Shown: positions 4,522 through 57,700 of the stretch, piece after piece | Position numbering within the stretch: the stretch's first letter is position 1 | Layout: the number at the start of each line of letters is the position of its first letter | DNA from: Mytilus trossulus | Lineage: Eukaryota | Length of the DNA: 64,000 nucleotides | NCBI RefSeq assembly: GCF_036588685.1 | Contig: NC_086380.1 | Span: 74,152,001-74,216,000, forward strand | Direction of reading: 5' to 3' | Notes under the pieces: generated by a model | Seen by the model: the letters and a program-made list of their open reading frames with translations, nothing else | Told to the model about the DNA's origin: nothing | Database searches by the model: none | Made by a program: the position numbers and the translations under genes

Positions 4522-4565
4522 TCGCCAGACGCGCGTTTAGTCTACATAAGACTCATCAGTGACGC
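4522..4565 (-). pseudogene. Inactivated hammerhead copy
   Basis: Same family as 32812, but GAAA is TAAA (G12 lost). Confidence 0.8.
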
Positions 4566-8094: not shown

Positions 8095-8503
8095 CTTAGA
8101 TAACCCCAATTTTTTGTGGGGTTCGTTCAATCTAATTAAAATTAAATCTCTCAATCGCTCATTCGTTTGATGTGTTTGGACTTTTGATTTTGCTTTTTGC
8201 TTTTTGATTTTGATTTTTGAATTTTCCTCGGAGTTTAATATTTTTGAGTTTTTACTTTTTCATTTGTAAATGCTTGGTCGCTGCGTGGGCTCTCCCACGC
8301 AGTGACCAAGCTTTAAAAAATTAGCGAGTGAGAGATTTAATTTTAATTAGATTGGGGTTCGTTTTGCTCAGTTTTTAGTTTTCTATGTTGTTTCTTTTGT
8401 ACTTTAATTAGTCTTCTTTTCTTTGTCATTTTAGCCATGGCGTTGTCCGTTTATTTTTAATAATGAGTTTTACTTTTCCTCTGGTATCTGTCGATACTCT
8501 TTT
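8095..8503 (+). mobile_element. Penelope-like 3' UTR fragment interrupted by a MITE
   Basis: Similar to 16400-16575; split at gggttcgtt. Confidence 0.75.
8128..8354. mobile_element. MITE with 26-bp TIR and 9-bp TSD
   Basis: TIR caatctaattaaaattaaatctctca / tgagagatttaattttaattagattg; TSD gggttcgtt at 8119-27 and 8355-63. Confidence 0.9.
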
Positions 8504-10129: not shown

Positions 10130-11740
10130 TTCCATAGACAATTACCTAATGAAATATAACGTCACACCTGACTCATCGTTGTCGTCTATTGTACAGCGGT
10201 ATACTACTGTTGTCTTTATGTAGAACAAGTTTATACTAAAATGAAATTAACCTATTTGTGTAATGTTTCCATTGTACAGTAAATTTAAGTCCGTCAAAGT
10301 TTTGCGATAAAATGTGCATCAAAAAGGTACTGTGGTTTCGTCAACAGACTTACATCTAGTTTTAGAAATTTTCTTTTGTTTCCTTTTAGGGATAACCGGT
10401 TTATTTTCAATAGTTTTCAAAGGTACCAGGATTATGATTTAGTACGCCAGACGTGAGTTTCGTCTACATAAGACTCATCAGTGACGCTCAAAACAAAATA
10501 TTTATAAAGCCAAACAAGTACAAAGTTGAAGAGCGTTGAAGGTCCAAAATTCCTAAAAGTTGTGCCAAATACTTTTAAGGTAATCTATGCATGGGATAAG
10601 AAAATCCTTAGTTGTTCGAAAATTCAAAGTTTTAATAACAGGAAATTTATAAAAATGACCACATTATTGATATTCATGTCAACTAATATAAAACAAAACA
10701 AGATGTGGTATGATTGCCAATTAGACAAATATCCACAAAAGATCAAAATGACAGACATTAACAATTGTAGGTCACCGTACAGCCTTTAACAATGAGCAAA
10801 GTCCATACCGCAAACTCAGATATGAAAGGCCCCGATAAGACAATGTAAAACAATTCAAACGAGGAAACTAACGGCACTTATTTATGTAAAAAAATGAACG
10901 AAAAACATATATGTAACACAGAAACAAAGACTAAATAATTTAAAATTAGCACGTTCTCGTTCTAATAACAAGACTGTTTATTTAAATACCAATCCATCAA
11001 TGTGTGGAGGTAACGTCTGCACCAAATTGGCACTGTAGTTTTATTAGCGGATGAACGTTAAGTTTTAGTAATTACAATTTTTGTTTTGCCTTTCGGGTAT
11101 AACCAGTTAATTTTCAACTGTTTTATATCAAAATATACTGATCAACTCGGATTCTCTCTATGCAGGGTAATATTACTTTCAATGAAATATAAAATTAGGA
11201 ATTTTACGTTACACCTGCCTCACCGTGTTCGTCTGATAACACGAACAAAAGATTTACACGTTCTCGTATTGATATTAGAACTTGTTTTAATTGGACTTTA
11301 AATGGCAATCAATCAATGGATATGTATTGCGGTAAATTCTGCACCTAATAGACACTGTAGTTTTCCAGCGGACAAATACAAGTTTTTGGTAATTGCCCTT
11401 TTGCCTTTTAGGGATAACCTGTGTATTATAAAGAGTAGTATATGAACAAAGACTTGTCGGCGTTGGTTCTGTCTGTGTAAGGTAAATCCTATGGAATATT
11501 TCCTGATGAACTATTATGCTACACATGCCTCACCATGGTCGTCTAGCGAAGAGCAAAGTTTTATTAATATAAAGTGAGCACGTTCCAGTGGGTCCTTATG
11601 ACGTGGAATGTTTCAACTGGACTTTAAAATGCCAACCAATAGATGTATTGCGGTAACGTTTGCACCAATCGGCACTGTACTTTTTATGAGCGGATGATTT
11701 TGTATTCGCCTTTCTCTCGTTTAAGGGATACTGCGTTTAT
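10130..11740. repeat. Diverged tandem units of about 300 bp (3-4 copies)
   Basis: Recurrent acacctg.ctca, ggtaa..t.tgcacc.a...gcactgta.tttt...agcgga and tttagggata. Confidence 0.7.
10444..10487 (-). ncRNA. Type I hammerhead ribozyme (repeat about 10409-10683)
   Basis: Reverse complement gcgtca CTGATGA gtc..gac GAAA ctcacg TC tggcgt; core intact, stem III palindrome altered. Confidence 0.8.
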
Positions 11741-12477
11741 TTATTTTTTTAAATATGAAGAGATACGGTTTAGTACAAATCAACAGATAATTACTACATG
11801 ACATTTTTAACACCGGGAGTTTTCTTACAAAAGTTCAAAGTTTCTATCATAACCTACAATTTATAATATATTAAGTAACAAAAAGGTGCTAATGAATTAG
11901 AAGGCAGTAGGTTTCCAGACGTGACATGGTATGATTTCAGACGAAACATGGTATGTGTCCACGACATTCGTTCCATGAAGATGTACATAAACACAAGGTA
12001 ATATACTCTTAGACTATTTAATCATTCAATGATGCATGTACCAAGTCAGTAATATGACAGTGTTTTTTTCTATTCGTTTGATGTGCTTGAGCGTTTGAAT
12101 TTGCATTTGATTAGGGACTTTCCGTTTTTTTTTATTTTCCGCTCAGTTCAGTAATTTTGTGAATTCAAGTTTTACTGCTACAATTTCTAATGCAAAGAAC
12201 ACTACTTATTTAGGTAAAGTCTTTTTTTGTTGTTTTGTATTAGGCTTACAAACGCCGTTTTTATTTTTTTTATTGTCAAGTGTTATTTTTTTTTATATTA
12301 AATTGTTATGTTGTTTTACATTGTTTTGTCAGACTTTCGTAATGTAAATGATTTCGGGTTGTGCTGACGAAAAGTGGTTCAACTGATTTTTTTCATCTTT
12401 GTCCTAACTTTTGCATTGGGACAGCAAAGCTTGTATGTTCTTTGTAATTGACAATGAGAATCGGTTAAAAACAAAAG

Positions 12478-12812: not shown

Positions 12813-13713
12813 CACAATCTTATTTCCTTCTCAAACTTCCAGTGAGGTGAGATTGTTTTGTTATTATGTGTTAATTGCAGTCATAAAATCTTTGAAATAT
12901 GTATGGTTTGTTTTGGCTATGCATATACAAGTCAATAGTAATAAAAAAGACAAAGCCAATATTTTTGAATATTTTACAATGCACATAATTTATATCTTTA
13001 ACGAATGAGGTTATTTCTATGAGCGATTTTGGTAAATAGATATAAAAAATGTGGTATGAGACAACTTTCCATTCAATTCACAATTTGTAAAATCAAACAA
13101 TTAAAACACTGTGTGAGGTTTATTTCTTCAGAGTTTTGTATTTGTATATAACACATCTTGGGTTTTGTATTTTGTATTAGTTTATAACAAATTTCATCAA
13201 TCTAATAAGGTCTCCTTCTTCCAGTTGGGCACAATATCTTTCTAATATAAATGGTTCAGCAAAGGTTATCATCAAGTTGGCCTTACATATGTATTATTGA
13301 TTGAACCATTTTTATGACAGATTTATGTATGTAATGAAATTGAAACGTTATGCACTTTGTACTAACTACACTTACAGTATAAACCTGATCTATCCTGAAG
13401 TTAGAAGATGGTTATGAAGAAGAATAGATTAATTATAGACTAACTTAAGTTTTACGATAATCTAAACAGTTCACAAGACTGATGAATTGGTACATGTATC
13501 ACAAGCAACATGTATGTAGTCGTACATCTTGCTACAAGTAGTGTCGCTGTAACTGTAACTTCTTCGAGTGTGTCCCAGTTGCGACATTCTGAAACAGGAA
13601 TTTTTAAATAGATTAGAACGTTGACTTTCCCGTTTGAATGGTTTTACACTAAACAAATTTGCGGGGCCCTTTGTAGCTTGCTGTACGATGTGAGTCAAGG
13701 CTCCGTGTTGAAG

Positions 13714-13883
13714 TAGTTATCAAAGGTATCAGTATTATAATTTAGTACGCCAGACGCGCGTTTCGTATACATAAGACTCATCATTGACGCTCATTTCAAA
13801 ATATTCATAAAGCCAAACAAATACATAGTTGAAGAGCATTGAGGGTCCAAAATCCCCCAAAAATTGTGCAAAATACGACTAAG
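13714..13883 (-). mobile_element. Retrozyme-like fragment with a mutated hammerhead (CTGATGA to ATGATGA), flanked by 7-bp direct repeat gttgaag
   Basis: gttgaag at 13707-13 and 13884-90. Confidence 0.8.
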
Positions 13884-15056
13884 GTTGAAGACCGTACCTT
13901 GACTTATAATGGGTTAATTTTATAAAGTGTGTGTTGGATGGAGAGTTGTCTTATAGACACTCGTACCACGTCTTCCTATATCTATTAAAAATCGAACTCG
14001 AAAAAGGGTTAGCCCTTAACACTGAAGAAATCAGACTGAGTGTGCATTTGCTTTCCGTGTACCATTTTAACATATTTGATTTAGATCTGCTAGGAGTTTA
14101 TGCAATAAGTTTGACATGTAATGCTACAAATTTTAGAATATCTGTAGTATATAATCTTATATTTCGTTTCTGTTTGTGTTGCATTTTAGTGTTGCGTTTC
14201 TATTGTGTCGATGGTCTCCTCTTATATTTTATGTGTTTCCCTCAGTTTTACTTTGTAACCCGGCTTAATTTGTTTTTTCTCAATCGATTTATGAATTTTG
14301 AACATTTCTACTCTAGTTCCTATAAGTGGTCCTATTATATCCTCAGTTAAGCTCGGAAAGCTCCTAATTTATGTTCTAAAATATAATTAACAAAATGCGT
14401 TATACTTCAAAGTAAGAGTTTAAACTTTGAACAATACTTTCCATACAATTTTCTCAGTGTGAGTGTTTTAAAAGACCACTTTCTAGTTCATCGCGTCACC
14501 GGAAAAAAACTCATCTATTATGCGCGCCTTTGTGACGTCATTTACTAGATAGAGACGATCGCCTGTATCCCTGTACTATAAACGTTCATCAAGCGTCCTA
14601 GTAATTGTCATTATGCAGGATAAACAAAAAATAAAGTTCAGTAGGTACTTAATCACAATTCCATAATGACAGCGGTACTGATTGTCAATTATGAGAATTT
14701 AATATGCCAAATAATTTGTGCAATATAGCATTATAGTTTTCCCTTCACTCGCTCAATATTGGAAGGAAAAAGACGACGCCCCTGAACGCAAGAATGACAT
14801 TCACTAAAACATAAGTTTTTGACGGAAAAGCATCGAGCTCGAAAGTTGTCTACTGTTGACTCCAATTAATGCCTTCAGTTATGCTTCCTGTTAAACTGCC
14901 AGCTCTATTGATTAACAATGCAGGGGTGACACACTTATATAACACATTTCTGTGGAAAAAAAGTTGTCAATAAATAATTATCAGCTAGTTAGTAAGTGCT
15001 TCCGTATTGGCAATATTTCAACAAACGTGTCCACGAATTGTATGTGACTGTTATAT

Positions 15057-16575: not shown

Positions 16576-17707
16576 ATATAAAATAGAGGTTTTGTTATCT
16601 TTAAACCTTATTATAATCTACCTTTTTCTAGATAAGGAAATGCTTGTACCAATTAAAGAGTATGACAGTTGGTTTTCATGCATTCATTTACGAGGGTTTG
16701 AGGTTATCATTTTGCCATTTGACTAGAGAGTTTCTGATTTGAATTTTCGTTGCATTGTTTTTATTTTTTTTTTGAGGTATTTTTGTTTTTCTACTTTCTG
16801 TTATTTCCTGTTGATACATAAAAACTTTATTCAAATAATCAAAGTTAAGTTCCTCGTACAAAGTTTACTACATCATATGTGTTAGGCCATATTATTAAAA
16901 ATTCATTTTCCTCTTGTTTCATCATTAAAACTTTCAGCTTTATTATACAATTTTTAAGAGAAAGAATAAAATTGATTCTGAAAAAAAAAACCCTTCATTA
17001 ATTAATTCAGAACGTACAATTCAAACTAAACAAAAAACGGAAGGATTATCAGGCCTAGAAGTCATAAAATTTTCGAGTCAGTTTTTTGAACTCGTACTTC
17101 AAAATCAATATATCAAAACGCTTGATTTCATGTTTCGAATATGATTGTTGTGCTCGTAGCACGGAGCAAAGTTTTATTACTTCAACCTGATGAATACAAA
17201 AACAGCCAGAGTAAGCCTCTCCTGCAATGTAAATATTACCAAACATGTGAATGCACAATCCCCCAAGAGGTCAAAATCGGAATTAAAAATCTTGACTGCA
17301 GTTATTTGAGACACAGACAAATCGTATCAGTCAGACCGTAAAAATTAATAATAAAGTCGCATTAATTGTTTTTCCTAAAATTTATGTTCAAGTATATTTG
17401 TGTTGGGAACGTATTTATAGTATATATAGATTATAGTTCATATAATGAACATGCAATATTGTAAAGCATCAACTGAGATGGATAAACGACAAACGATTAA
17501 TATGCTACGGGTATGACTAATGTCATACATGTTGTGGTAGTAATCAACTCTCTTTAACATGCTGCGATAATGAGTTTCGAACGCATCAAACATAATTCGT
17601 ATCCATTTAATCCCTTTGTAGCGTTATACGCAATTGTAAAATATATTTTGCTAAAATATCGTTTATACATTTTTGTTTTTATGACGTTCGCAAAAAAAAG
17701 TTTAATA

Positions 17708-18312
17708 AACATGTTCTTCTCATATATGTTATGATGGTATGATACTAAACCCCTTACTGGAAGGATTGTGCCTGATGTTCATATGATGAAATCATAATCT
17801 TTCAGTCAGTTTAATTGAAGTCTGGAGCTGGCATGTCAGTTAACTGCTAGTAGTCTGTTGTTATTTATGTATTATTGTCATTTTGTTTATTTTCTTTGGT
17901 TACATCTTCTGACATCAGACTCGGACTTTTCTTGAACTGAATTTTAATGTGCGTATTGTTATGCTTTTACTTTTCTACACTTGTTAGAGGTAAAGGGGGA
18001 GTGTTGAGATCTCACAAACATGTTTAATCCCGCCGCATTTTTGCGCGTGTCCCAAGTCAGGAGCCTCTGGCCTTTGTTAGTCTTGTATTATTTAAATTTT
18101 AGTTTCTTGTGTACAATTTGGAAATTAGTATGGCGTTCATTATCACTGAACTAGTATATATTTGTTTAGGGGCCAGCTGAAGGACGCCTCCGGGTGCGGG
18201 AATTTCTCGCTACATTGAAGACCTGTTGGTGACCTTCTGCTGTTGTGTTTTTTTTATTTTGGTCGGGTTGTTGTCTCTTTGACACATTCCCCATTTCCAT
18301 TCTCAATTTTAT
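17708..18312 (+). mobile_element. Non-autonomous interspersed repeat (family A); inverted copy at 32025-32323, fragments at about 2960-3210, 22490-22660, 24155-24270, 25315-25460, 34020-34127
   Basis: Near-identical reverse-complement match of 18015-18312 to 32025-32323. Confidence 0.85.
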
Positions 18313-21789: not shown

Positions 21790-22226
21790 ATAAAAATATT
21801 AAACGTGTTGCTTTCATTTTTTCAATTTCAAACAGCCGATCACTTTTCTCAATGGAAGGGGCATAATAAGATAGCGTTCAAATATAAGGGAATATAATAC
21901 ACTGTTACGTATTGCTGCTAAATCCAGACTATGTAATAACGGCGGTAATATTGTAAAGACTTTTAGAGGAAAGCAGTCAGGCATTAATTGACTAAATTCG
22001 CCTATATTACCTTTTAAATCTAGTCAAATGTATGCTTACCATATAAGTAAATCGTCATAACAAACATTTACAAATTAACAGAGAACTTCAGAAAATTTAA
22101 CAACAAAGTCATGCTGTTCTTGGAGGTATGTTCACCTTATAAGTAAATACCCGTGAATCGATTATGAAACAATGTTGGTAAACACAAATGTGTTAATAAA
22201 TGACCGTAATAGGTGTCAACAATGGG

Positions 22227-22288
22227 TATAAATTCAAGTTCATCACACAGTCCTACAGAAAAATTTATAAGATGCAAATAAATAACAG
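22227..22288 (+). promoter_or_regulatory. TATA box plus putative first coding mini-exon (MQINN-S) of the opsin-like gene, copy 1
   Basis: TATAAA 22227-32, ATG 22272, donor AG|gtaata after 22288, in phase with the acceptor at 26040. Confidence 0.55.
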
Positions 22289-23886
22289 GTAATATAATTC
22301 TCTTCTTTTTTACTTAATTTATATCAATTTATAACGATAAAATAAATTTTAGTTAATCAAAAATTGTTAGCTTTTCGTCATCCAAGGTTAGAACAATAGG
22401 TGTTAATCATATTAATTTCCACACGTTTCCTCTATGTTTTTTACTTAACTGTGACTTAAAAACATTCTGTCAAATATTTTATGAAAATAATTGAAAATGT
22501 AAATTTGGAATTGTCAGAGAGACAACAGCCCGACCAAAGAGTAGAAAACAACTCAAGGGCACAAATGGTTCTTCAACACAGCGATAATATTCTTGCATCT
22601 GGAGACAGGGTCCAGCTAGCCCCTAAAAATGTGGACCAATTCAGTGAAAATGAAATGGATGTCGTCTTTTCAATATTTTCTTAATTATTCTTTATTTGAG
22701 ATTATTTTTTTATTAAATTCTTTTTGCTTTTTGAGATTTTTTTTTCTTTTTGCTTTTTGGAATTTTTTTCTGAATTCTTTTTTTTTTTTTTTTTGAGGTG
22801 GGGGGCTTTCTATTTTGTTGGTTTGTTATGGTGTTAGATACCTTTTACTTTTTTCGATTATTCACAACTAAATGTTTCATCTCTATTATATATGTTCATA
22901 CAAGTTACTGTATATAGTTCTTTATTATTTTTGCCTGTTTCAGTTTTGTTTGTTGTTTTGTTTTCTTGTCTGTGTTTGGTTTATATTGTGTGTTTTACTT
23001 TTTCGACTTTGGTCGCGATAATCTGAGGGAAGTTTCATGCTCACCCAAAACTAGTTCAAACCCATCTATATTTTGCCTCTTGATCATGCAGTGTTAGTGC
23101 TTGGTTGTGTGGGTCTTTTTCTACGAGGTTAAGTCTGTCGTGCGGTTCAATAGTTTTCGTATTTATCATTTGATTCCTACATATTAGCAGAAAAAAACAT
23201 CTTAAAAATCAATCTTTCCAATTAAGTCCCCTGCACTAAAACAAATAAAATAAATAGACCTTGAACATGTGTTTCCTTGCACCATGGTGCAGAGAGGCGG
23301 AAACCTTTTAAAGAACCCAGATTTGGTGGATTTTGTAATAATGGGCACTAAACGTCACATGAAAAGTTCTTGTTTCAGATCGTTTCATGTATCGTTTTTA
23401 CCGCATTAGTTTCTGACTTTCCACGTTAATCATTTCTTTAAAATGTTAAAGGGCATCATTTGCAATTTGAAACAACTGATTATTTTCACAATAAAAGGGG
23501 CATAGATAGCAAAAATATGGACTAAGATACATTTAAACGGAATGCTGATAAAACCAGACCATGTGATTACGACGGAGATACTGTAACGACTTATATAACG
23601 ATACTTATAACGAAAAAAGTCGAGCATAAAGTGACTTAATTCGCCTATATTACCTTTTAAATCTAGTCAAATTTATGCTTACCATATAAGTAAATCGTCA
23701 TAACAAACATTGACAGATTAACAGAGAACTTTAGAAAATTCAACAACAAACTCATTCTATTCTTGGATATATATTTTTGATAACTATATGTTCGCCTTAT
23801 AAGTAAATACCCGTAAAACGATTATGAAACAATGTTAGTTAATACAAATGTGCTAATAAAAGACTGTAATAGGTGTCAACAATGGG

Positions 23887-23948
23887 TATATATTCAAGTA
23901 CATCACACAGTCCTACAGAAAAATTTATAAGATGCAAATAAATAACAG
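23887..23948 (+). promoter_or_regulatory. TATA-like box plus first mini-exon, copy 2
   Basis: TATATA 23887-92, ATG 23932, AG|gtaata after 23948. Confidence 0.55.
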
Positions 23949-24634
23949 GTAATATAATTCTCTTCTTTTTTACTTAATTTATATCAATTTATAACGATAA
24001 AATAAATTTTAGTTAATCAAAACTCAATTGTTAGCTTTTCGTCATCCAAGGTTAGAACAATAGGTGTTAATCATATTAATTTCCACACGTTTCCTCTATG
24101 TTTTTTACTTAACTGTGACTTAAAAACATTCTGTCAAATATTTTATGAAAATAATTGAAAATGTAAATTTGGAATTGTCAGAAAGACAACAACCCGACCA
24201 AAGAGTAGAAAACAACTCAAGGGCACAAATGGTTCTTCAACACAGCAATACTATTCTCGCATCTGGAGACAGGATTGTGTGTGTGTGTTGGGGGGGGGGG
24301 GGTTCGTTTTTGTTATGTTTGTTATTTTTGGTGTTAAATACCTCTATAAGTGATATTGTAACGACTTTTTTAGAAGGAAAACAGTCAGGCATAAACTGAC
24401 TTAATTCGCCTATATTACCTTCTTAATCTAGTTAGATTTATGCTTACCATATAAGTAAATAGTCATAACAAACATTGGCAAATTAACAGAGAACTTTAGA
24501 AAATTTAACAACAAATTCATGCTATTCTTGGAGGAATGTTCACCTTATAAGTAAATACCCGTGAATCGATTATGAAACAATGTTGGTAAACACAAATGTG
24601 CTAATGAAAGACTGTAATAGGTGTCAACAATGGG

Positions 24635-24696
24635 TATAAATTCCAGGACATCACACAGTCCTACAGAAAAATTTATAAGATGCAAATAAATAACAG
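24635..24696 (+). promoter_or_regulatory. TATA box plus first mini-exon, copy 3
   Basis: TATAAA 24635-40, ATG 24680, AG|gttata after 24696. Confidence 0.55.
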
Positions 24697-27600
24697 GTTA
24701 TATAATTATGTTTTTTTCTCTTCTTTATTTAAATAAATTGATGGCGATAAAATTCGTTTTTGATGTTTTAAGTAAATTATAACAGTTTTTTAAGTTTCCT
24801 TATCCAAGGTTATGACCAATGGTATTTTACGTATTGTTTTCCTCTGTCTATTTTATGTTTAAACTATGAAATCTACAGTGGCTTAATGATGTACTAAGAT
24901 GATCTAAGGTCAAATTAAATAAAATCACGAATTCAAAATTGATATTTTCAGCTTGAAGAGTTTTAGTTAAGGATCAAAATAAGTAATAATATCAAAAGGT
25001 CACGGAGCTCCATTTCGAGATACTTGATTTATAATTTGGCTGACTCGGACTTTTATACTTTATATTTGCATTGGTATTATTTGGGTCTCAAATCAAAAGA
25101 AAGAAAATCAAGAATCCACTATAACTTTGTCAAATGACCTGTAAGGAGCTATTAAGTCTTAAATGTTAAAAGATAAATAGCTGTTATAGGGCGAAATAGT
25201 TTACATTGTATTGTATGTGAAAAAAAGCCAAGGAGTTCGAACATTTGACACTTATTCCAAAACCTAACCTAAATACATCACTAATGCATCCTCTAAAATA
25301 TTTTATAAAAATAATTGAGAATTGAAAATTGAAAATTGGAATTGTCAGAGAGACACGAAGGTGACTTCAACATAGCCAAAACATTCTCGCATCCGGAAAC
25401 AGGATTCAGATCGACCCTATAATATGTGTAGTAGTTCATTGAAAATTGATGTCATCTTTTAAATTTTTTCTTGGTTATTCTTATATTTGTTATTATTTTC
25501 CTTTACGGTCCTTGCTTTTTTGTTTCTTTTGTGAATGATTGTTTTTTTGTTTTTTTGTTTTGTTTGTTGCTTTGTTTTTTTTGGTTTTCAACACTGTTGT
25601 TTTTATCTATCAGGTAACGATAATTTACAACTACAGGTTTCATATCTTTTCATCTCAGTTACTGTACTTTCTTTGTACAGTTTTGTACTATTTTTGCCTA
25701 TTTAATTTTTTTTGATTGTTAGATTGTCTTGTCTGTGTTTGTTTTATATTGTATGTTTTAATTTTGCAAATTTGGTCTAAATAGCTGAAGGTTGATCCAT
25801 GCTCAGCCAAAACTAGTTTATACCAAGCTATAAATTTGCTTCTGTACATAGTTAAGCTATCTCTATCATTCAGTGTTAGTTATTAGTTTTGTGAGTATCA
25901 ATACATTTTTTACGGGTAATGGTACATTTAATAACTATTTCGACTTTACACGTTAATAATCCACCGATTTATATGTTTCATTTAATCGATATCTGAGCAC
26001 ACAATATATTCAACCACTTAAAATTATTCTCAATTTTCAGTTTTTCAGTGAATACAAGCACCTTTTTGACAACGGTAAACCATACCAAGACTAATATCCC
26101 TAAGGATGATTATCTATCCGAGTCAACACAGAAAGTTATTGGATTCATCATCTGTTTCTTTTCCATTGTTGGTGTAGCTGTCAGCATTACAGTGCTGAAA
26201 ATAGTTCTTACAAAAATACAACGACTGAACTCATCGACTGTGTTCATTCCTGTTTTAGCAATTGTTGGCTTTATTGTATCTGCATTTTTAATGCCTTTAC
26301 ATGCCGCAACAGCATTTGATAGGAGAATTATCTTTGACAAAAACATATGCAGGTTTTATGGATATACTTTTACCTTAATTGGATTGTTATACATTAGTCT
26401 CATAACCACAATGGTAGTCCAATTATACAGAGTGATTGTGTCAACTCGTCCAATCGATGTTGGATTAGACAAAAGGTCTTTTATTTCAGTTTTAGGAGGT
26501 TGTTTCTTGCTTTGTGGAATTGCTTCAGGTAAGTAATGTGTTTATTTGGGGAAAAAAACTGTTTCAAGAAAAATTAAAACAAAAGATGAGATAAAACTAT
26601 TTCCGAAGCAATGTGAAGTCGATTCCCCAGTGGGTTTTTTTATATTTGAAATATGTAATAAGCTATTCTATAAAATAAAATGACAATCAAAACACAAAGA
26701 ATGACAGAGAAAAAACACAGGCGAAATGTAAACAATGGAAAGATATAAATAAAACAAAAATACAAATCGAACAATTTCACTTCTTTGGTGTCATAAACAA
26801 ACCATTGGTATACGACGATACATTTACAAGTGTACATGTATTTGGAAATTTAAAAAAAAAACGAAAAACAGAGGCACATAACAGGATTGTAAAATTCCAC
26901 CTCTTCTGTAAAATATATGACTTTGTAAAAGTAAATATCACTGCATGAAGAAACAGCGACGTTAAGAAAGAAACAACAACTTTAAGTAAGGGGGACTGTG
27001 TAGGCTAATGCTCACATTATTCTCTACTGATTCGGACTCCAAATGTCCTCCTTTATACGCCATAATTTATTGTGCGGTCCCAATTCGCGTTTTAAAAATC
27101 ATGAGTAATTTCATTATTCGTACCCCAAAATGAAAATAACGTCACGTCATTGGTTGAATTTCCACTGTATATGACATTTTTAACCAATCACGATGTTTTG
27201 ATGTACACTTTTACAAATATTACCCAGCATGCATTAGATTCTGAAACGGCGAATTAAAGAAGACTCATACGGAGACAAAAGACAAGACGAAACAGTCAAT
27301 CAGTCGTTAATTTAACTCTATAAAAAGTAGAATAACAAAAATACGAACTCCTAGGAAAAAAACATAACGGAATGTCAATTATTATATGGCAAAAATCAAC
27401 GCTGAAACACATCAAACGAAAGGAAAACAAATTTCATATTCCGGACTTGCTACAGACATTTTCTTATGTAAACAATGATTAATTTTATCTAGTTTAGAAG
27501 TTAACTGAGCCGTTCACATTTAGCTAAGCGTACACGCGTCCCAAAAAACGGACTAAAACAATAACAGGATATTATTTTCTAATTGGGTAAGATCATTAAA

Positions 27601-30509
27601 TTTACCCATAGTCGTTTAGATTCTAAAACAGACAGAATCATAAAGTATATATACCTTTATTTGACAGCGAATGTTTCTATGACATTGTATAACTTTATAT
27701 TGTGTATAGACGTTTCCTTGATTTGTAACTTTTTTACTTTTTTGAAATCTACAGTGCAATTACCGACAGTTTTTAAGATTGTGAATCAGCGGGTGTCAGT
27801 ATTTAATTGTATAATCCGAAAATAACGTAACTTTGTAATTTTGTAGCTTTCCCGCTATTTGGAATTGCTGCGTATGAACCTTACCGAAGACCTTCACTAT
27901 GCCATATGAGATGGATACCGTTTAACCAAAGTGATATAGTTTATTATATAAGTCTCCTGATTCTATTCTTTGTGTTCCCAACCATCTTGATTTCTGCTTC
28001 ATACACAGTAATCTATTTCAAGGTTAGTGCTTTAATGGTGTTGTATGTACTTTATATGGTTTTTAGGTGGTATTAAACACCTTAAAACTTAAGCTAATGT
28101 GGCTCGTGTAATTTTCATAAAAAAATCAACATTAAACTAACTTTTTTCACTGGAAAATTATATAAAAATTTCATAGAATTTGAATCACAACCTATATTGG
28201 AAAAAAACATATATAGTAGGTTGACATTAAATTTTCGCCTGAAGCGCATTTCGTCTACAAAAGACTCATCAGTGACGCTCGAATAAAAATTTGAATGCCA
28301 CATGAAGTACGAAGTTTAAGAGCACTTAGGACCAACAATTTCTAAATGCGTTGTCAAATACAGCAAGGATAATCCATTCCGAAGGTAGAAAGGTCTTAGT
28401 ATTTCAAAACTCAGAGTTTTGAAAACAGTTAATTAATAATTCTCACCACATCAATGATAGTTCATGTCAACGAAGAAGTGCTGACAATTGGGTTGGTGAT
28501 ACCATTGGTAAATTAAAACTCCACCAGCAGTGGCATCGACCAAATGGTTGTAAATAAACTCGTCATAGATATCATGATTGAATTTGTATATCCACAGTTA
28601 TGATGATTAGATTTAGGAAAATGTGGTATGAGTGCCAATGAGCCAACTCTCCATCCAAATAACAATTTATAAAAGTAAACCATTATAGGTCAAGGTACGG
28701 TCTTCAACACGGAGCCCTGGCTTACACCGAACAACAAGCTGAAAAGGGCCCCAAAATTACTAGCGTAAAACCCTTTAAACGGGAAAACCAACGGTATAAT
28801 TGTAATAAAAAAGTGAAACGAGAAACACGAATAAATTACTTAAACAAACGACAACTATCGTACATCAGAATCCTAACTGAGGACAGGTGCAAACATTTGC
28901 AGCGGGATTAAACGTTTTAATGGTACTAAACCTTCATTGTACATTCATCTTTCATTTCAGACCAAGGATTCATCTTCCAGGTCTTTAACGTCAACCAGAA
29001 ATAGACATCGTCAACTTTTCATGTTAAAGACTTTCATCATTATCACAGGTAATTTAACTTTTACTTCGACCAAAAATAGACATCGTCAACTTTTCATGTT
29101 AAAGACATTCATCATTATAACCAGTAATTAATCCACTTTTTTCTACATACGAACATTCCTGTACCCTTCAGGAATTTGACAGTTGTTATCCATTGGTTTA
29201 ATTTGTTTGAGCTTTTGATTGGGGCATTTCCTTTTTGAATTTTCCTTGGAGTGCAGTATTTTTGTGATTTTGCTATAACTTTTACTTTTATTTCAAAAAG
29301 GTGGTACCAAACATATTCAGTAAAATTAGTTTGGCTCGTTTGATTTTCATTAACTTTTGACAAATTAGTTTCTTCGACCATTTAACAAAAATATAAAAAT
29401 CCAGTGATGCGCTAATGCCTTTTCTTTCGTCTTTTAAAAGTATTCTTAGTATATTTGGACCAATATTTTGATGCTCGTTTGCATCAAAAAGATTCTTACA
29501 TGCAACATTTGATTCCATTAGAAAGAAAAAAACATCAAAATGAGTTATAAAAAAACGTTACTTGAGTAATGATGCAAAATACTTTAACATTAATTTAAAA
29601 GACGTCAAACATGAAACAACATTATGTTTATATAGCTGATGACATCATCATGTAATTACAAATAAGCATAAACAACAAATTCAGTAATGCTGATGCGATT
29701 ATTGTGTGGACCTGAATCAAGAAAAGACATATACATTTTGTGTCCTCTTTTTATTTATATAACAGGATTGTTTTTGTTAAAAAAAAAATTGGATGTCATT
29801 GCCTAACGTAATTAAAAAAAAATCTAACCCGTTATTTTTAAGAATCAAATAATTTTTATTGTTCAGTTTTGACAAAAAATATCGATAAGACTGTACATAC
29901 GTAGCTAACTGATTTCGTCTTATAGGACATCTCAGATAATATGTGTTCGCTTAATGTGTTGAGCTTTTGAAAAGGACTTTCCGTTTTGAATTTTCCTTTC
30001 AGTTCTATATACATGTATTTGTTAATTTACTTTATCATGTTTATACATATGGAGTTTAAATTCCTTCACATAGTAAATATCAAGCGATTTAAGTAACAGC
30101 AAATTTAATCTTATTTATTACAGGTGCCTTTATATTGACCTGGTTACCTTATGTGATATGTGTTATTATGGATTTAGCTGGAGTTGACTACCATTCATAT
30201 TCCCACAACATCTATCTTTTCTGTTCGATGATAGCAAAAGTGTCTCTTACATGGATACCGGCGATATTTATTATTCGTCACAGTTATTATAGAAATGACT
30301 TGGAAATAATGGCCAATGAAATGATTGAAAAAGTTGAAAAATTAACAATGTCATCAGGCGAGTACAATTTAGATAGTGTGGGCATGTCTGTTGAAGGGAA
30401 AGTCGCTGGCGGAATTGAAGTTGTAGCAGATGAGTATGAAATGATTGAAACAATTCCTTCAAATACGGTTCTCGTATCTTATAATAGATTATCAGTGAGT
30501 GAAATATAA
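24680..30509 (+). CDS. Opsin-like class A GPCR, 5 exons: 24680-24696 (or its copies 22272-22288 / 23932-23948), 26041-26528, 27847-28022, 28961-29048, 30124-30509; about 384 aa
   Basis: GT-AG introns with compatible phases (2,1,0,1) give 1155 nt in one frame. The protein has 7 hydrophobic segments, N-terminal NxS/T sites (NNS, NTS, NHT), TM3 CRFYG, ECL2 PLFG..YEP...C...W, TM5 FFVFP...SY, TM6 WLPY and TM7 MIAK (Lys codon 30237-39, rhodopsin K296 position). Exon 1 is inferred. Confidence 0.85.
28235..28278 (-). ncRNA. Type I hammerhead ribozyme in opsin intron 3, antisense (repeat about 28232-28590)
   Basis: Reverse complement gcgtca CTGATGA gtc ttttgta gac GAAA tgcgct TC aggcga; stem mismatches. 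Confidence 0.75.
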
Positions 30510-32811
30510 AGGATTACAAGTTTGTCATGACTAATGGACAATCAAATTATTTTTAATTCACACAAATGATTTTTTTAACCAAATAATATGATACAAATTG
30601 TTGTTTCTGACTTTTGTTTATAGTGTTAAATGCCAATCACATTTGGGAACCGAACTGGGAGACAGGATCTTGAAAAAGGTAAAATCACAAAAATACTGAA
30701 CCCAGAGGAAAATCAAATCGGAAAGTCCCTGTCACATGGCAAAATCAAATGACAAAACACATAAAAAACGAACGGACAAGAACTGTCATATTCCTGACTA
30801 GGTACAGGCATTTTCAAATGTAGAAAATGGTGAGAAATGGAATCGGTTCTTGTTGTGGAGGTATTTCAAGAAACACAATGCCAAAGTGGCGTCTATTTTC
30901 TTTGAAATAGTACATATTTTGTTTCGGGGACTTGAAGGTGAAAAAGTATGTGCATTTTTTAAGACTTGTTGCCAAAACTACAAATGAATCAACATGCAAA
31001 AATATGGTGCATTACTTTATATCTTTTCTAAAGAAATAATATTTATTTATTTCCAGAATGTAAATAGCTCCCTTATCTTCTTACTTTTATGATCTAATTT
31101 AAAACAAAAACAGCGTCAACGTCTAGAAACGTGAACAACACTTTATAGTTGACGTTTAAAATGGGGAAAAGAGGAATTGAGGATGTTTGCTTGTCATGTT
31201 TTGTAATTTTTTACAGATTAGCGAAATCCTCAGGTTTTATCCATTTCAATGCCATTAAAAATTGCCCATGGACCCCCATTTTTCTTTTTAAAAATCTTTA
31301 ACATGTATAATTATAAGCCATTTGTACAAGTCTTATAAAATCTTAATTATATTTTGATAGTTTTTGATAACTTTAACTGGTCAATAATAAAGATATGAAA
31401 AATCAAGAGAGAACATTTTCCCGCAAAAATTTCAATGGCTAATATCCCGAAAACAAGCACATTGATTCCTATATTTATTTTGCTTTTTTAATTCCTGAAT
31501 CAATATCCTATCAATATATACTAGTTTTATGGAAAGTTACTAATTTTGAAACTGAGCAGCAAACTTCCTTAAGTACGGGAGAGGATTGTCCCGATGCATA
31601 GACTAGATTTTTTCCTAATAGTTAGTAAATTTGGATTGCCCTGAACTGATAGCCTCCATATAGGAGGACGTGAAATTAAAATAAAATAAATCCTTCCATT
31701 CGTTTTTCAAAATAGTCTTTAAATGATGATTTGAAGTACACTACATATCAATAAAGGCAAAAGCCGTAAAGAAAGACGTGTTTGCTTGCGTATGAAAGCC
31801 GCATGTCTGTTGTATAAAAAAGACAATAAAAAAAACGTAATTAATATGTTAAAATGAGATTCAAATATTTTTATTTACATCTTCAAAGTTTCTATTGACA
31901 ACGAAGACTACATTGTGGCTACAACAGGCGAAACATACTCATGGTCATGTATGCCTCAGATTTTCAATAAACGGTCAACCAAATCAAAATGACATTCGTT
32001 AAACTCTCGTAAGATATCGAAAGATATAAAATTGAGAATGGAAATGGGGAATGTGTCAAAGAGACAACAACCCGACCAAATAAAAAACAAACAACAGCAG
32101 AAGGTCACCAACTGGTCTTCAATGTAGCGAGAAATTCCCGCACCCGGAGGCGTCCTTCAGCTGGCCCCTAAACAAATATATATTAGTTCAGTGATAATGA
32201 ACGCCATACTAATTTCCAAATTGTACACAAGAAACTAAAATTAAAATAATACAAGACTAACAAAGGCCAGAGGCTCCTGACTTGGGACAGGCGCAAAAAT
32301 GCGTCGGGGTTAAACATGTTTGTGTCTTCATCGTTACCATTTAGAACATTAGGTTCGACAACTTTACTTACTCTTCAAAACATAATTTTGAATGTACCTA
32401 AAACACAGTTTCAAAAGGATTTAGGAAATTTTTCCTATTGGATATGACACCATTTGAAAATTAAGCGGTGGCTATCTTGATAAAATGATTTTTTTTTATG
32501 GCCAGCATCTTATTTTTTTAAGGATCGTTTATTCAACCTTTATACCAATTTGAATGCTTGTGTCACGATTTGCACAATCTTTTCCATATAATATTTCCCA
32601 CTAAAACCACCTAGGATCATCTTTAATGGGATTTGTGTTGCTGGGTCTTTAGTAGTATATTGTGTGTTCATTGGTGTTTATAAATTATCACTATCCGTTT
32701 GTTCTCTAATGGTGATTTTAACGATTTTTTTAGTATTTTCTTTTTGGAATTTTGGATCCTCAATGCTCTTCAACTTTGTATTTGTTTGGCTTTATAATCA
32801 TTTTGATATGA

Positions 32812-44300: not shown

Positions 44301-47300
44301 CTTGATCTGAGTATCGATGAAGAAGCTGGACTTCCTGATCAAATTAAAGAAAAATATACATTAACAAAAACATTAGGCAGGTATGTATTAAAAGGTTAAT
44401 GGATCAATTCAGGTAGATCAGTCTAATATAGAAAGAAAATTATAAACCAAGACGACCCATTCACAAGATTAAGCACAAAGACCATACAAATGTTATGACC
44501 GCCTTAAATCAATATCACAGATTGAGCAAATTATAAACCAAAAAGACCCAGTCACAAGACTAAGCACAAAGCTTACGGCGTAAATATTCTCAAAGACCAT
44601 ATAAGTTTTATGACTGCCTTCAGTCAATATCACAGATTGAGCAAATTGCTAGGTAGATCAAGATGTGGCACTGGAAGGGGAGCATTTTATAGATATAAGA
44701 AGATATGGCATGATTGCCAATTAGACAACTCTTCAATCAAGTCATAATTTGTAAAAGTAAACCATTATAGGTCAAAGTACTGTCTTTAACACAGAGCCTT
44801 GGCTCACACTGATTACTGAATAGCAAGCTATAAAGGGCCCCCAAATGACTAGAATAAAACCATGTAAACAGGATAACCAGCAGTCTGTATTAATCTATAA
44901 AAAAAAAAACAAGAAACAATAAACTCTTATCATGCATATCAACAATGATGTTTATACAGTGAAACCTGTCCAAATCGAACACCCACGGGACTTTGCGTTT
45001 TGTTCGGTTTTCACAGGTGTTCGGATTGTAGAGGTAAACGGAAGTCGACACCAAAATAATGTTGGCATTTACAATTACTGACAAGGGAAAAAAAGGTGTA
45101 CTTACAGACGACAGTTTATTTATGTGTTGATTTAGATGTAAATGTAAAAACAAAAGAAGATAAAGATAGACGTATTGCTACATTTTTGTTTACAAATCAA
45201 ACGCCACTCCGTCAATCACGCTCGTCGTTGGAAGATGTCCAACGTGGGGCGATTTTGCTTTTTATAATTATTTTCTCATCCGTTAATTCACTGACCAATT
45301 CAGATTCAGAGTCACTTTCAAATGACGATTCCGTAGTTAAATCGGGAACGTCTTTGTACACATGAGTTCTCGGACTAAACTGGTCACCCGCTGATTCATA
45401 CTTTGGCACACTATAACAGTGTAACAAAAGCAGGGATCCAGTTTATTCTCGGTATTTATCATTTCTAAATAGCCAACGGAAGTTTTCGGGAGCATTCCAA
45501 TCAAATATATACGGCCTCTAAAGGGAATTCAGCAATCGAAATCCATTGACGTTGTTGTGTTGCACGACTTCTTAATCCAGTGAAAGGCTTTTAAACTATT
45601 ATTTAATTAAACAGTTTAGCTACAGAATGGCAGTTACAAGTTTTTGGCCTTAATTATTTGAGTAAAGTGCATTTAATTAATCTGAGGGACAGTTCGTGTC
45701 ATTATCGGCGATGGGGGTACCTGACCAGTTCAAAGTTTCTTTACCATAAAATCACTTAATACATGAAAACAGACATGCTAATTAGTTTGTAATAACAACT
45801 CACAAGTTCATTAAACCTCAAATACCCTCGGGAATACTCTGACATCCTGTGTTTGTTTAATTAAATCATGCAAATAATTAATAATATTGTTTTGTGTTGA
45901 TTGGTATTGATCGATTTTGACAGGTAATTTTTAGATACAAATTCAATAACGAGCCTTCAAAAAGCGTTCGGAGTTCGGTGTTGACAGGATTCAGTTTATT
46001 CAGGTTACATTTACGTTAATTGATAGGGATATTTTGTGGGACTTTGAAAATTGTTCGGTTTAAACTGAAATTCGGTTTTATCAGGGTTCGGTTTACCCAG
46101 GTTTCACTGTATATAGAATCTTCAAGATTCTCCAGTTGTCTATATTTGTACTATCAGATAATATAAAAAGACATCTGGAGGTCAACATACAATAGTTGAC
46201 AAACAGTAACGTTGAACAGGTGTTTATACAGCTATAAATTGTTTGAAATTATTAAAAATAAATAAACAGAAAGTATCAAACATCTGCTCAATCTCGAATT
46301 CTGTTAATAATAAAAATAGAAATAGAATTAAATAATGAACTGTATAGTGTAAATTCAGTACAATTAAATAGTTTTTAAAATTACAATTCGTTGTAGAAGT
46401 ATACAGAATATTGAATTCATGCATCTGTTAATAAAGAAATCAATTTAAAGCAGTTTCTGTGATTTATTCTTGAATTATTTTTTTTACAGGGGTGCATGTG
46501 GAGAGGTCAAGTTAGCATTTAAAAAAGGAACATGTGAAAAGTTTGCAGTAAAAATTATATCAAAGAAAAAGTTTTCCATTGGTGGCAAACATCAAGTTGT
46601 AAGTTTCATTTCAGACTGTACAAGAGTAAACAAAGTCTTTAAAAAACTCCTCATCATTTAGTGAATCAGAACTAAATAATCCTGGTTCACTTGAATTAAT
46701 AATAACTTTACTGTGGCATGGGGACACCTAAAATGGTTTACCATCCTACTTAGGCGCTCAGTAATTCTTGTATCACAGGTTTCGAAACAAGACTAGGCAT
46801 TATCAGAGATGTCACAATGTCAGAGGAGAAGTTAGGCCAAAAAAAAATATATGTTTGTTTCCTGTTTCCCAACCGACCCTGACTTAAACCCCCCGACCCT
46901 AGATCTTTTTATTCAATTCCTGGAAAAATCATTTCCAATCCAGATCCTTGTCTTACTATGTCCAAACAATCAAAATGGCTGCTCCCAGCACAAATGTGCT
47001 ACAACTAAGGTTTAAAAAATGTCAGCACTGAGAGGATTATTCAATTCAAGCTTCTTCAAAGGGATTAAATCATTTTGGGGTACAAGACCCTAACCAAACA
47101 TGACAATTAACCGACTGCAAATCTGACAGGGTGTGCAAAAATAAAAAAATAAAAAATCCCGACCTACTGACCCTGATTTATTTGCCTTGGCAGCAGGAAA
47201 CAGACATATATTTTTTTTGGTCTTATCAAGCTTGCTTTCTTCAAGTGTAAAACTGTATGACGGAGGAGACAAAGACCAGATATAGAAAGAAAAGCATATA

Positions 47301-51972: not shown

Positions 51973-53293
51973 CACTCTAAGACATAAGCCCGGATTTACA
52001 TATATATTTCTACAAATTTATATCAGCATGTTATCAGTGATCAGTTAGATATAAATTATGTGGACACACTTTCTTAGTGGTTCACTAATTATAACCAGAT
52101 GTTGACCACAAAATGTTAAGCTGTAAATTCATATTTCTCTATGTCTTTCCTCCAGGCTCCATTGTATTTCTGAACAATAACTATGATTTTTTTTTTAATT
52201 TATCTGAAGAAATTTTCTTTTACAGATGGTTTTCCAATTTGAATGGTTTTTACACTAGTAAATTTGGGGCCCTTTATAGCTTGTTTCACATGTCAATGTG
52301 ACTGAGTGTTTTGGAAATAAAGCATATTGTATTGTATTGTATTGTATTGTATTGTTCGGTGTGAGCCAAGGCTCCATGTTGAAGGCCGTACATTGACCTA
52401 TAATGGTTTACTTTTTTAAATTGTTATTTGGATGGAGAGTTGTCTCATTGGCACTTGTACCACATCTTCCTATATCTATATTTAGTTTTTTGTGATATTA
52501 TGGACAACTTCCCCTGCAATTATATGAAATCAAATTGTGTTCCTTGTATTTCTTAAACTAATAAAAAAAAATGTACCATTAAAAACGAATAACATTAACG
52601 GTACATTTATTTTTTTATAAACTTTTTATTACTGTTTCTATTTACTTAATAACTTTAATAAAATATTACAATTTATTGAATTATTTCAAAGTGATGTGAA
52701 TTCAGGGAAAACAAAAAAAAAACATAAAAGATTAGCCTAACCATTACAAATGGTGTGGTTTATGCCATAGATATTGGCTAAAAAGACAATTTGTTTAACC
52801 CTCCCCCTTTTATTTAAATCTGGTATTTTTCTTAGTTTTCTATCAATTTCAATAAACTACAAGAAACTACAACATCAGAATTATGTCATCCTTTTTTTTT
52901 TAAGTGTGTGATATTTGCTACTACCCAAAACAATTAACATATTATATACTATGAATTACAATAAAAACTGAATCCATTTTAAATATGAACATAAACTATG
53001 ATATAATTACTGTAATAGTTTTCTTTTTTTTATTTAAACTTCTGATTTTCATCTTACACATGATCAAACTTTATTGCTATATTTCTATATCAATATTCAC
53101 TAGAATTCATTTATACACATTTATAACTGTACTTCAAAATAAATGCTGAAAATAATATATTAAGTAATGTGATATGTATGTGACCAGTTATTTAGGGGAT
53201 TAAGATAAACAAACCCAGCATGGTACTGGTCTGGGGGTAATTGGCATCAGCATTATAAGAGTAGCTGGAAATTCCGGCTTATGTCTTAGAGTG
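51973..53293. mobile_element. Non-autonomous CAC-terminus element (CMC/EnSpm-like) nested in the large transposon
   Basis: Perfect 18-bp TIR cactctaagacataagcc / ggcttatgtcttagagtg; no clear TSD. Confidence 0.8.
52326..52354. repeat. (ATTGT)n microsatellite
   Basis: Direct observation. Confidence 0.95.
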
Positions 53294-54790: not shown

Positions 54791-57700
54791 TGTAGATCAG
54801 TCATATTAATACAGCAATGGGTAATACAGTAGCAGTTCCAAAAAAATGTTACAAGGGGACAAGTCCAGTCATGCTTCAACTATTTCTTATATATATTCAA
54901 CCAAATTTTTGACCAAAAATGAGGGGTCTGAGGCTCCCTGAATCTGCATATGATGCTTATGAAAACAAAACTTGAGTTTATATTTACACTTTGTATAAAA
55001 GAAATTGTTGATTACAGACATTTCAAATAGACAGCAAAGAGTATTTTCATTTGTATCAAAAGGACGTACACATTGAAACAATATACTATAATGGCAAGAT
55101 GAAGGGTTATAACCCTTTTTACTAGGTTTGACTATTTGGGATATTCACTGACTCAATTGTTTTATTATACCAACAAGCAAATTACAATAAAAAGTAATAT
55201 ATTGTATCATATAAAAAAAGAAGATGTAGCATGATTGCCAATGAGACAACTATCCACAACAGACCAAAATGACACTATAGGTCGCCATACGTACAGCCTT
55301 CAACAATGAGCAAAGCCCATACTGCATAGACAGCTATAAAAAGCTCCGATAAGACAATGTAAAACAATTCAAACGAGAAAACTAACGGCCTTATTTATGT
55401 AAAAAAAATGAACAAAAAAACAATATGCAACACATAAACAAATGACAATCACTGAATTACAGGCTCCAGGAGTGACTTGGGACAGGTTGTCAAAACAATT
55501 ACGTTAGAAAACTGTTTTGTGTCTATGAACATTTGGCATATATATACACAACAAAGCAACTATTTCTGTAATAAATGAATGGCCCTGAAAAGGTCCATTT
55601 TAAAGAGATATCATCACACTAAATGAGTTTTCGAGTCTTGTTTGATCTTTTACTTTGGCATTTGATGTACTTTTAACCTAGCCGTTTTCATATTAGCCAA
55701 TCAAATAATCATTTTATAATGAAAGGTATTATAATACTAAATAAATCTTAGAATCATAAGCAATGAGTTGCCTAATGCACATACTCACTGTCCGGTTGTA
55801 CTAGTTATAATTACATTAAAAAAAATATTCTTATATATATATATATATATATAAAAAAAAACATGAGCAAATCCAGCTTGTCAGGTATATATATATATAT
55901 AATATATATATAAGTACGTCTGAGTCAGTGACAACCCTACAACAGATGTATCCATCGGATCACCATCAATGATGGTGATACATGGCTCACAGTGTACATA
56001 ATGTATATACAACTCGTCTAAACATGACACTATAATAAATTATTTGTATTCTGATATATGGACTTTCAATTTAAACAGAAATAAAGAAAAAAAACACTAT
56101 CTGGCCTGCATTGAAAATATTTCTGAATAGTTTAATATTTATTGAAATCTTTAATAACAGTAACTGAAAATCATCTAAAGTCGAGGGACAAGGACACTTA
56201 TATCATATAATCTTTGTATTCAGTGGTTAGGATGGGCCACTGAAATAGTTCTCTATATCTGCTTTATTAGAAATGTTATGTTGAGAAATTTATACTTTAC
56301 AGTACATATATACAGATGGAAGAATGCCATCACATTTGAGGGAATCCCAATTTTCACAACTCATTAGCTTCACAGTTTGAAGTCATTGTATATACTACTC
56401 TTCCCAATAAACTGACCACAGATGTTACACATAGATTATCTGATAAGAAAGTCAAATTCTGGCATTTTCTGTCTTTACTTGAAACATAAATACATCTTCT
56501 ACCTGCATGACTTGTAACAATATCTATATATTGTATATACAGAGTCTGATGGTTTGATGGTTTCCAGATAATAACTTTAGTATAGAAAATAGAAATCAAT
56601 AAAATTTTAATGCAAGGTTTATAACCTCTTTAAGCAAGGAGGTTATAATATAACCTCCTTGCTCTTAAGGAAAGTTGGGATTAATTTTGGGGTTTTTGGT
56701 CCTAACAGTTTAGGAACAATGGGCCCAAAAGGGGTCAAAATAAGCATTTTTCTAGTTTCGAGACAATAACTTGTGCCTAAGTGTATGGATCTTTCTGAAA
56801 TTGTACCACAAGGTTCTATTCATAAAAGAAAGGTTGGGATTGATTTTGGGGTTATGACCAAAACTGTTTGGGAATTAGGGACCAAACAGAGGCCGCAAGA
56901 CCAATACTTTTCCAATACTTTGTATAAATTGCTTATTTCTTGACCAATTTCAATGAGGTTTTATTCTTGAATTCTTGGGGTTCTTAAATATGCTGAATCT
57001 AACCATGTATTAAGTTTTTGGAATTTGGTTCCTTTTTTTAAATTTGTCCACATGAGGTCAAAAGGGTCCAAAATTAAACTTTGATAATTTCATCAAAAAT
57101 TGAAATATTGAAGTTCATTGATATGCCAGACCCAACCGTGTATTTAGATTTTTGATTTTGGGTCCCATTTTCAAATTGGTCAACATAATGGTCCAAAGGG
57201 TCGGTCCAAAATAAATTTACTTTGATTTTAACAAAATTTCAATTCTTGGGATTCATTGGTATGCTGAATCTAATCATGTATTTGGATTTTTGATTATGGG
57301 CCTAGTTTTCCAGTTGGTCCGAGTTGGATTCCAAAATATAGACCAGATCTGGATTTTAACAGTCTTAAAATACACACACTTTGGCTGATCAATGCATTTG
57401 AATGGGTACATATAGTTGGACGCCCTCCCCTTTGTCCTGGGTTGGGAACCCCCTTTTTAAAATGGCTGGATGCCCCTGAATTACATTGACATGTTTTATT
57501 AAAACATAAAATTTAAATTATAAATTATCATAGCATTTCTAAATTATATGCAGAAATCAGCTTATTTTTATCAATATTCAAAGAAGAAAAGAAATTTATA
57601 TTTTCTAATTAAGTTATGGATTAAAACATTGCAAAAATGTTATGAAAATAGAAACCGCCTTGTCTATAAAAGAGATTATAGATTACATAATGTATTTAGT

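Follow-up and report, generated by a model that had tools for sequence, protein, structure and literature searches.

Naiads are Penelope-like retrotransposons of 3.4-4.4 kb in which, according to the accessible part of PMC8557442, an N-terminal GIY-YIG domain, CxC and DKA motifs and a C-terminal reverse transcriptase (RT) are accompanied by pseudo-LTRs and 5′ truncation. Selenoprotein Naiads, including Naiad_Scon and Naiad_Mmer, carry in-frame UGA codons and a SECIS, and in the same portion of that survey they are listed for clams and spiders only, with no mussel among them (Craig et al. 2021, PMC8557442). Telomerase has its closest relatives in the Penelope-like RTs; how these select the RNA of their own element has hardly been explored, with a single element studied in vitro. 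In the Poseidon element PAc, reverse transcription starts internally, about 90 nt past the hammerhead cut site (Frangieh et al. 2024, PMC11167929); among active templates, the shortest had its start at +20, a protein-binding motif was placed by the authors in the surrounding 150 nt, and the sections of that paper at hand report RNA-seq with no reads ending at its active hammerhead. As for twister ribozymes, the P1 stem has been reported as dispensable (PMC11662667, in the part available).

In the window, the 64-kb stretch of mussel DNA that was analysed, the initial annotation had described eight copies of one structured RNA motif, here called M2, in three repeat families (A, B and C), and all eight were present at the positions and on the strands that it gave. 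The family A copy at 18169..18243 (+), of 75 bases, was delimited by covariance model, pairing and single-sequence folding. The covariance model also located the second A copy at 32094..32168 (-), within the element 32025-32324, the family B copy at 10761..10833 (-), within an element at about 10686-10928, a decayed B copy that has lost its G run at 55271..55347 (-; originally given as 55276-55350), and the family C copies at 28679..28752 (-) and, in decayed form, at 44761..44841 (-). The two remaining C copies, annotated as single spans at 13663-13912 and 52266-52405, were located on the plus strand but were interrupted, the first (13663..13912) just 3′ of UUGAAG by a 170-bp hammerhead-retrozyme insert and the second (52266..52404) by a 66-bp insert. 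When the covariance-model search proposed in the annotation was run, with a model that includes the 18169 copy itself, the eight named copies were the top eight matches in the window, at 29.8-78.1 bits. Further matches were a decayed A′-type copy absent from the original list, at 22548..22623 (-) and duplicated near 24153-24268, and three or four other decayed copies. The exact register pattern, which was derived from these same copies, gave 3 matches in the window compared with 0.00 in 100 shuffles.

Apart from M2, four hammerheads and a SECIS were detected in the window with Rfam 15, all of them outside the motif. Type I hammerhead retrozyme fragments lie at 4522-4565 (-), 10444-10487 (-), 13747-13790 (-), 32812-32855 (+) and about 28236-28346; they showed a strong strand bias in stranded RNA-seq and fit the mussel retrozymes of PMC7229834, in the accessible part of which M2 is not described. 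Retrozymes were found inside M2 itself in one family C copy of the window and, as a two-unit retrozyme, in a copy of a further family, F (L545). Other repeats were an array of about 40/85-bp tandem units (39530-40641), local duplications (21819-25843) and a second small tandem array (54502-54826), and a weak Histone3 stem-loop match of 24.3 bits, below gathering, was present at 55557-55601 (-).

M2 consists of one long irregular stem with a capping hairpin (P3), a UUGAAG bulge and an unpaired GGGGC leader, and a drawing as a single irregular stem with some 21 pairs suits it better than one with P1, a loop and P2. In family A, positions 6-27 pair with the 3′ 22 nt. The register was constant in 108 pattern-fitting copies from six families (A, A′, B, C, E and F), with a 6-nt leader, 8 + 9 + 4 nt of stem and a variable hairpin on the 5′ side, and UUGAAG followed by 4, 5 (6 in E), 4 and 9 nt of stem on the 3′ side. 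At position 15 a C-C mismatch predominates, and U-A and tandem G-U pairs come next. Of the three words described as nearly invariant (GGGGCC, UUGAAG and UGAC), UGAC did not hold up, as it is UGGC in subfamily A′ and UAAC in young C copies.

That the stems vary and yet stay paired was borne out by a comparison of one natural copy from each of the six families, in which 105 of 132 cells were paired, two-sided changes affected 11 of 22 positions and cognate halves formed 17.5 of 22 pairs compared with 14.3 for crossed halves; these tests draw on only six related families, and 4 of 720 permutations of the halves matched or exceeded the observed pairing sum. For 17 aligned copies, the proportion of paired cells was 83.5%, compared with 69.9 +/- 1.5 after shuffling (0/500) and 31-51% when the halves were slid, and two-sided changes were found in 12 of 21 pairs, a count equalled or exceeded by 73 of 500 shuffles. 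The corresponding proportion for 54 distinct copies, taken from evenly spaced genome stretches and aligned by the model, was 74.8% versus 67.1. RNAalifold recovered the outer and inner helices, with 12 pairs of which 7 were compensated, and in family F an entirely different P1 still formed 8/8 pairs. Between families, the identity of the motif was 0.58 and 0.88, compared with 0.34 and 0.32 for the flanks. Single-sequence folding returned the proposed structure for A, A′ and E, and mostly for F; in B and C, it was not the minimum-energy state, with folding z values of -0.12 and +0.49, respectively, and pair probabilities of 0.15-0.24. The strand assigned in the annotation was supported, because the sense strand, which is the RT coding strand, folded more stably than the antisense strand in 6/6 representatives.

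No conserved local pairing partner of the GGGGC leader was found across the families. A pseudoknot between GGGGC and the 5′ linker of the stem was rejected, with 5/5 pairs in A, A′ and E but 3-4/5 in B, C and F, as were a pairing partner of UUGAAG, none being found at a common position across families, and a local hairpin 3′ of P2, which is missing in C. A 5-mer complementary to GGGGC lies 97-109 nt downstream, within the terminal hairpin, in 5/5 families, but since such matches are common (1-4 per 370 nt) this pairing is a lead only.

The annotation had also recognised no known RNA family in M2, and in the Rfam 15 check, run on the window, 13 element loci and a 401-nt stretch, no match over the motif was obtained at E<=1, E<=5 or E<=10, the hammerhead, hairpin, twister, twister-sister, hatchet, pistol, HDV and telomerase RNA classes included. 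Likenesses to group II intron domain V, telomerase CR4/5 and hatchet had no Rfam support and were dropped. No description of M2 or of Naiad twisters was found in full-text searches of the open literature; in particular, M2 was not found in the accessible parts of PMC10085705, PMC6765202, PMC13725137 and bioRxiv 10.64898/2026.07.22.740005, and the available portion of the work on Helenus/Ajax LTR elements (PMC10886601) does not describe it either. M2 is therefore regarded as an undescribed and well-supported RNA structure within a known kind of element, with a putative function.

The description of the carriers as non-autonomous had to be abandoned, as A, B and C are the 3′ ends of RT-coding Naiads; an RT precedes the tail in these three families and in E. 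In the genome, the copies of each of the first three families stop at one fixed 3′ point but have scattered 5′ starts, and in all three the longest copies extend into the RT reading frame. Because these copies reach the RT frame and intact carriers were found, the three families represent truncated tails of autonomous elements; intact ORFs were examined for A (L121) and C (L267), and B was represented by partial copies. In the window, the family A Naiad at 17711..18311 (+) is 5′-truncated to its 3′ UTR/pseudo-LTR, is about 98.5% identical to young copies and holds a SECIS-like hairpin at 17721..17785 (+; 29.7 bits, with a gathering score of 35).

The intact family A element L121 has a truncated 3′ repeat (pseudo-LTR), an ORF of about 1000 codons and a SECIS-like hairpin after the stop. 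The order within the ORF is Zn-finger, GIY-YIG (GIQYVG), CxC, DKA and RT last, with a CNC linker and the motif DKAANN, which is also present in L266, and its four in-frame TGA codons, at Cys-type positions, recur in other copies. A similar ORF of about 1000 aa, with a Zn-finger and GIQYVG before the RT and five in-frame TGA codons, was found in the family C element L267, from a metagenome contig. SECIS_1 scores were 32.8 bits for A (L121), 24-25 for B and 28 for E, all below the gathering score of 35, and no SECIS was scored in family C. Pfam gave no significant match on ORFs of the L121 and L267 type, and canonical hammerheads were absent from L121 and five other element loci in an Rfam scan. 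Partial tandems of the pseudo-LTR and 5′ truncation, as expected of Naiads, were seen in L121, L129 and L130. Family A is young, intact and abundant; its RT gave 117 scored matches, all 99-100% identical, some of them in tandem about 4.0 kb apart. L121 (2323-5334) and L267 represent intact, very young selenoprotein-type Naiad families in mussel. When metagenome contigs were scanned with an RT alignment, 80 Naiad-related loci were obtained; the M2 version of family E is in L266, whose RT is 80% identical and is not in the source genome (best 73%). In a quick tree of 63 rows, based on a quick search only, A, B, C and E fell within one clade of 42 rows (SH-aLRT 97).

Within these elements, M2 lies 140-160 nt downstream of a twister-like fold (M1) and 65-85 nt upstream of the fixed 3′ end, and the tail of family A, about 650 nt in total, runs in the order SECIS, twister-like fold, M2, terminal hairpin and start hairpin. 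In the window, M1 is located at 17986..18068 (+), in type-P5 order with P1 replaced by two palindromes; it has three differences from the young family, and its predicted cut falls between 18025 and 18026. The fold was found in several Naiad clades (L121, L149, L266, L267 and L270-L293), and P2, P4/L4, both pseudoknots, the N-A cut site and the G base could be placed in 13 loci, with a clean register in 12/13, L287 being doubtful. With registers fitted per locus, cognate pairing of P2, P4/L4, PK1 and PK2 in these 13 loci was 0.98, 0.96, 0.90 and 1.00, compared with 0.74, 0.79, 0.76 and 0.73 for crossed halves. The P1 stem had 0-3/5 pairs, with one or two palindromes in its place, and no Rfam match was obtained over M1; the fold may work as a dimer. 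No RNA-seq read pile-up was observed at the predicted cut site, and 1 of 27 5′ truncation points fell there, with 2.5 expected.

Families A, B, C and E share a terminal hairpin, at 18265..18291 (+) in the window, with a GUCUC whose alternative partner could be the GGGGC leader. By eye, a GUGG...CCCCG hairpin was recognised in A and C some 20-25 nt beyond the fixed 3′ end (L165 3200-3232; L267 80-115), and the same outline is found at the beginning of Naiads from other clades and behind retrozyme copies; this hairpin is likely the RT start signal and a better candidate for it than M2. Oyster-type Naiads have a third conserved 3′ motif in place of the twister-like fold, in which a strand GGGUG precedes a hairpin looped by UGCUYAC and then GCACCUG, with a helix order reminiscent, by eye, of HDV-like ribozymes. 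It was seen at L288 ~3319, L290 ~1545, L291 ~1452 and L334 ~1114, and also in the published ends of Naiad_CGi, Sglo, Olur, Tgra, Pmar and a hemichordate Naiad.

When 60 stretches, each of 10 kb, from the source genome (1.30 Gb, 541 contigs) were searched with the M2 model, 48 copies passed E<0.001, a sample that scales to about 100,000 copies. Among the 80 metagenome Naiad-related loci it matched four, all in the A-E clade, and gave no match in the other 76, many of which end before the 3′ end. The 3′ end was reached in L270, L273, L279, L282, L283 and L293, and there the twister-like fold was present and M2 absent. Inspection by eye of 13 published Naiad 3′ ends (of 54 consensus sequences), in the available part of the PMC8557442 supplement, revealed no M2, and neither did a short-word search of the published Naiad consensus file, within the portion at hand. 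The same arrangement, with the twister-like fold and without M2, was found in the decayed 3′ ends of family D in the window (8161-8262, 12032-12173, 16615-16748, 27323-27477, 29130-29276, 30651-30832, 36415-36532 and 40978-41148), which match the published Naiad_Mgal 3′ end by eye. In viral contigs, no RT relatives were found and 0 of 10 pattern matches were scored by the M2 model; in prokaryote genomes, one of 49 pattern matches was scored and the others reached 20 bits or less. This single match, a family A′ M2 at L408 19-92 (-) with 59.8 bits, lies at the end of a 3.5-kb Saprospiraceae MAG contig and is probably host-DNA contamination. In the material searched, M2 is confined to one Naiad clade and is absent from other Naiad clades, prokaryotes and phages.

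The sixth version of M2 came from a profile search of loci and defines family F (L024 341-420; L491-L550), an old repeat with copies 72-82% identical to the query copy and a fixed 3′ end about 110 nt past M2. This family has its own terminal hairpins and a doubtful remnant of the upstream twister-like fold; no RT or ORF of its own was found in 60 loci, where the longest shared stretch was about 700 nt, and a search for its parent element found none. A young element present in multiple copies (L527, L528, L531 and L536; 98-100% identical) and at least 3.2 kb long has a decayed family F copy inside it and a probable exonuclease-like frame on the opposite strand.

The RT-recognition element offered in the initial annotation was kept as the leading, putative function, given the position of M2 and its conservation across families with decayed flanks. 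More precisely, M2 is read as a clade-specific putative binding site for the Naiad RT/endonuclease protein, with a probability of about 0.45, because its position resembles that in PAc, its fold is kept despite decayed flanks, even in family F, and it is dispensable in other clades. Irregular helices that carry a conserved bulge are typical of RNA bound by proteins, and the retention of M2 in family F, where no RT was seen, is as expected for a signal needed in copying. Against this reading, Naiads of other clades multiply without M2, and B and C do not fold in this way at minimum energy.

The other suggestion of the annotation, an undescribed class of self-cleaving ribozyme, which would cut near the 5′ G run alone or with the Naiad protein, is unlikely. 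GGGGC and UUGAAG are invariant unpaired bases at fixed spacing, M2 is of ribozyme-like size, varied ribozyme-like folds occur in the same region of Naiads, and family F retains M2 while its twister-like fold is not recognisable; however, A, B, C and E already hold the upstream twister-like fold, and the incomplete GGGGC-linker pairing in B, C and F leaves no conserved pseudoknot. Four raw RNA-seq runs from a species with the same label were compared with a family A tandem junction and then with the exact window copy. On the 1.5-kb family A stretch, the only large pile-up was inside GGGGCC, in one strand class and in 2/4 runs (108 of depth 493 and 152 of 589), and sense coverage was about halved there in three stranded runs. 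However, the reference had two mismatches, one and three bases away, that were able to clip reads, and host transcripts, even a few, can dominate these counts; with the exact window copy, at lower stringency and higher depth, no pile-up was listed, and the hammerhead control equally gave none. Both strands of the junction were covered, the antisense at least as deep, so that host read-through likely dominates the RNA-seq, and no splice joint into the next unit was found. In 600 kb of evenly spaced genome stretches plus flanks, 14 of 62 5′ truncation points fell within -6..+9 of G1, compared with 6.2 expected, but this excess is smeared over an interval picked post hoc and was gone at >=88% identity (4/28 compared with 2.8). 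An HDV-like nested double pseudoknot was ruled out, with no conserved local partner for the G run and no P3/L3. In HDV-like ribozymes the catalytic cytosine is in the last joining strand; a candidate of this kind was rejected in M2, where the strand leading into the last helix is itself paired, to the 5′ linker, and no conserved free C precedes purines. If M2 cleaved, it would represent a new ribozyme class with a long irregular stem, a UUGAAG bulge and a G-run leader, and it is doubtful that about 100,000 mussel Naiad copies carry such a class in tandem with a P1-less twister.

Somewhat less probable still is that M2 protects uncapped RNA after the twister-like cut or helps to translate it, as an exonuclease block or internal-initiation element. 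Counting from the new 5′-OH end, M2 would be the first large structure met, at a distance of 140-160 nt, and ribozyme-linked cap-independent translation has been reported for R2 and L1Tc (PMC6765202) and for RNA viruses (PMC13725137), in the parts of these sources at hand; but about 440 nt separate the end of M2 from the next unit's start codon downstream, M2 is missing from the twister-bearing Naiads of other clades, and the family F copies seen have no ORF to translate. There is little to recommend the reading of the M2 words as DNA signals, such as a pseudo-LTR promoter or an endonuclease site, with pairing as a secondary matter, even though the words are short and at fixed spacing, two retrozyme inserts lie inside M2 and, in the accessible part of PMC6765202, terminal repeats of Penelope-like elements typically hold promoters. 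Two-sided changes preserve the stem and the G-U pairs favour an RNA reading; M2 is no insertion hot spot, as 3 of the 12 listed element insertions lie within it, at different places, and RNA-seq depth falls about 100-fold past the terminus, a sign of little promoter output towards the next unit. Finally, the likeness among families could be a leftover of shared ancestry without a selected function, since A-E belong to one RT clade and G/U-rich strands pair easily, crossed halves still reaching 14.3/22; this is very improbable, with flanks down to 0.32-0.34 identity while M2 and its register are kept, and with the wholly different P1 of family F still paired throughout.

Under the preferred reading as a binding site for the Naiad protein, transcription of tandem copies would run across the repeat, the RNA may be cut to unit lengths by the twister-like fold upstream, and the Naiad protein would bind the M2 stem plus the start hairpin just past the terminus. 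cDNA synthesis would then begin 65-85 nt 3′ of M2, which would produce the fixed 3′ end and the variable 5′ truncation. M2 would thus act as an accessory, clade-specific grip and not as a universal start signal. The six natural variants of M2 provide ready compensatory pairs, so that template recognition by Naiads is directly testable.

Compared with known systems, M2 resembles the HDV-like ribozymes (CPEB3, R2 and L1Tc) in that its 5′ end is rich in G, one strand pairs with the 3′ end, it sits in a retrotransposon and its length is similar, but differs from them in having no P3/L3, no conserved partner of the G run and no Rfam match. The neighbouring M1 resembles the type-P5 twister described in the available part of PMC11662667, its P4/L4 being the rice 16-mer with three differences, two of which form one compensated pair; unlike that ribozyme, M1, a predicted fold, lacks P1 and has no Rfam match. 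The carriers share with the Naiads of PMC8557442 the domain order, pseudo-LTRs, truncation, a length of about 4 kb, UGA codons with a SECIS and the absence of a canonical hammerhead, whereas for those Naiads the portion of the paper at hand describes no 3′ RNA motif beyond hammerhead cores and SECIS. PAc differs in its hammerhead and in an AC-rich stem-loop inside the ORF, and in the accessible part of its description no likeness to M2 in sequence or structure was seen; yet both kinds of element present a ribozyme, predicted here, followed by about 100-150 nt and then by an internal start of reverse transcription, likewise predicted here.
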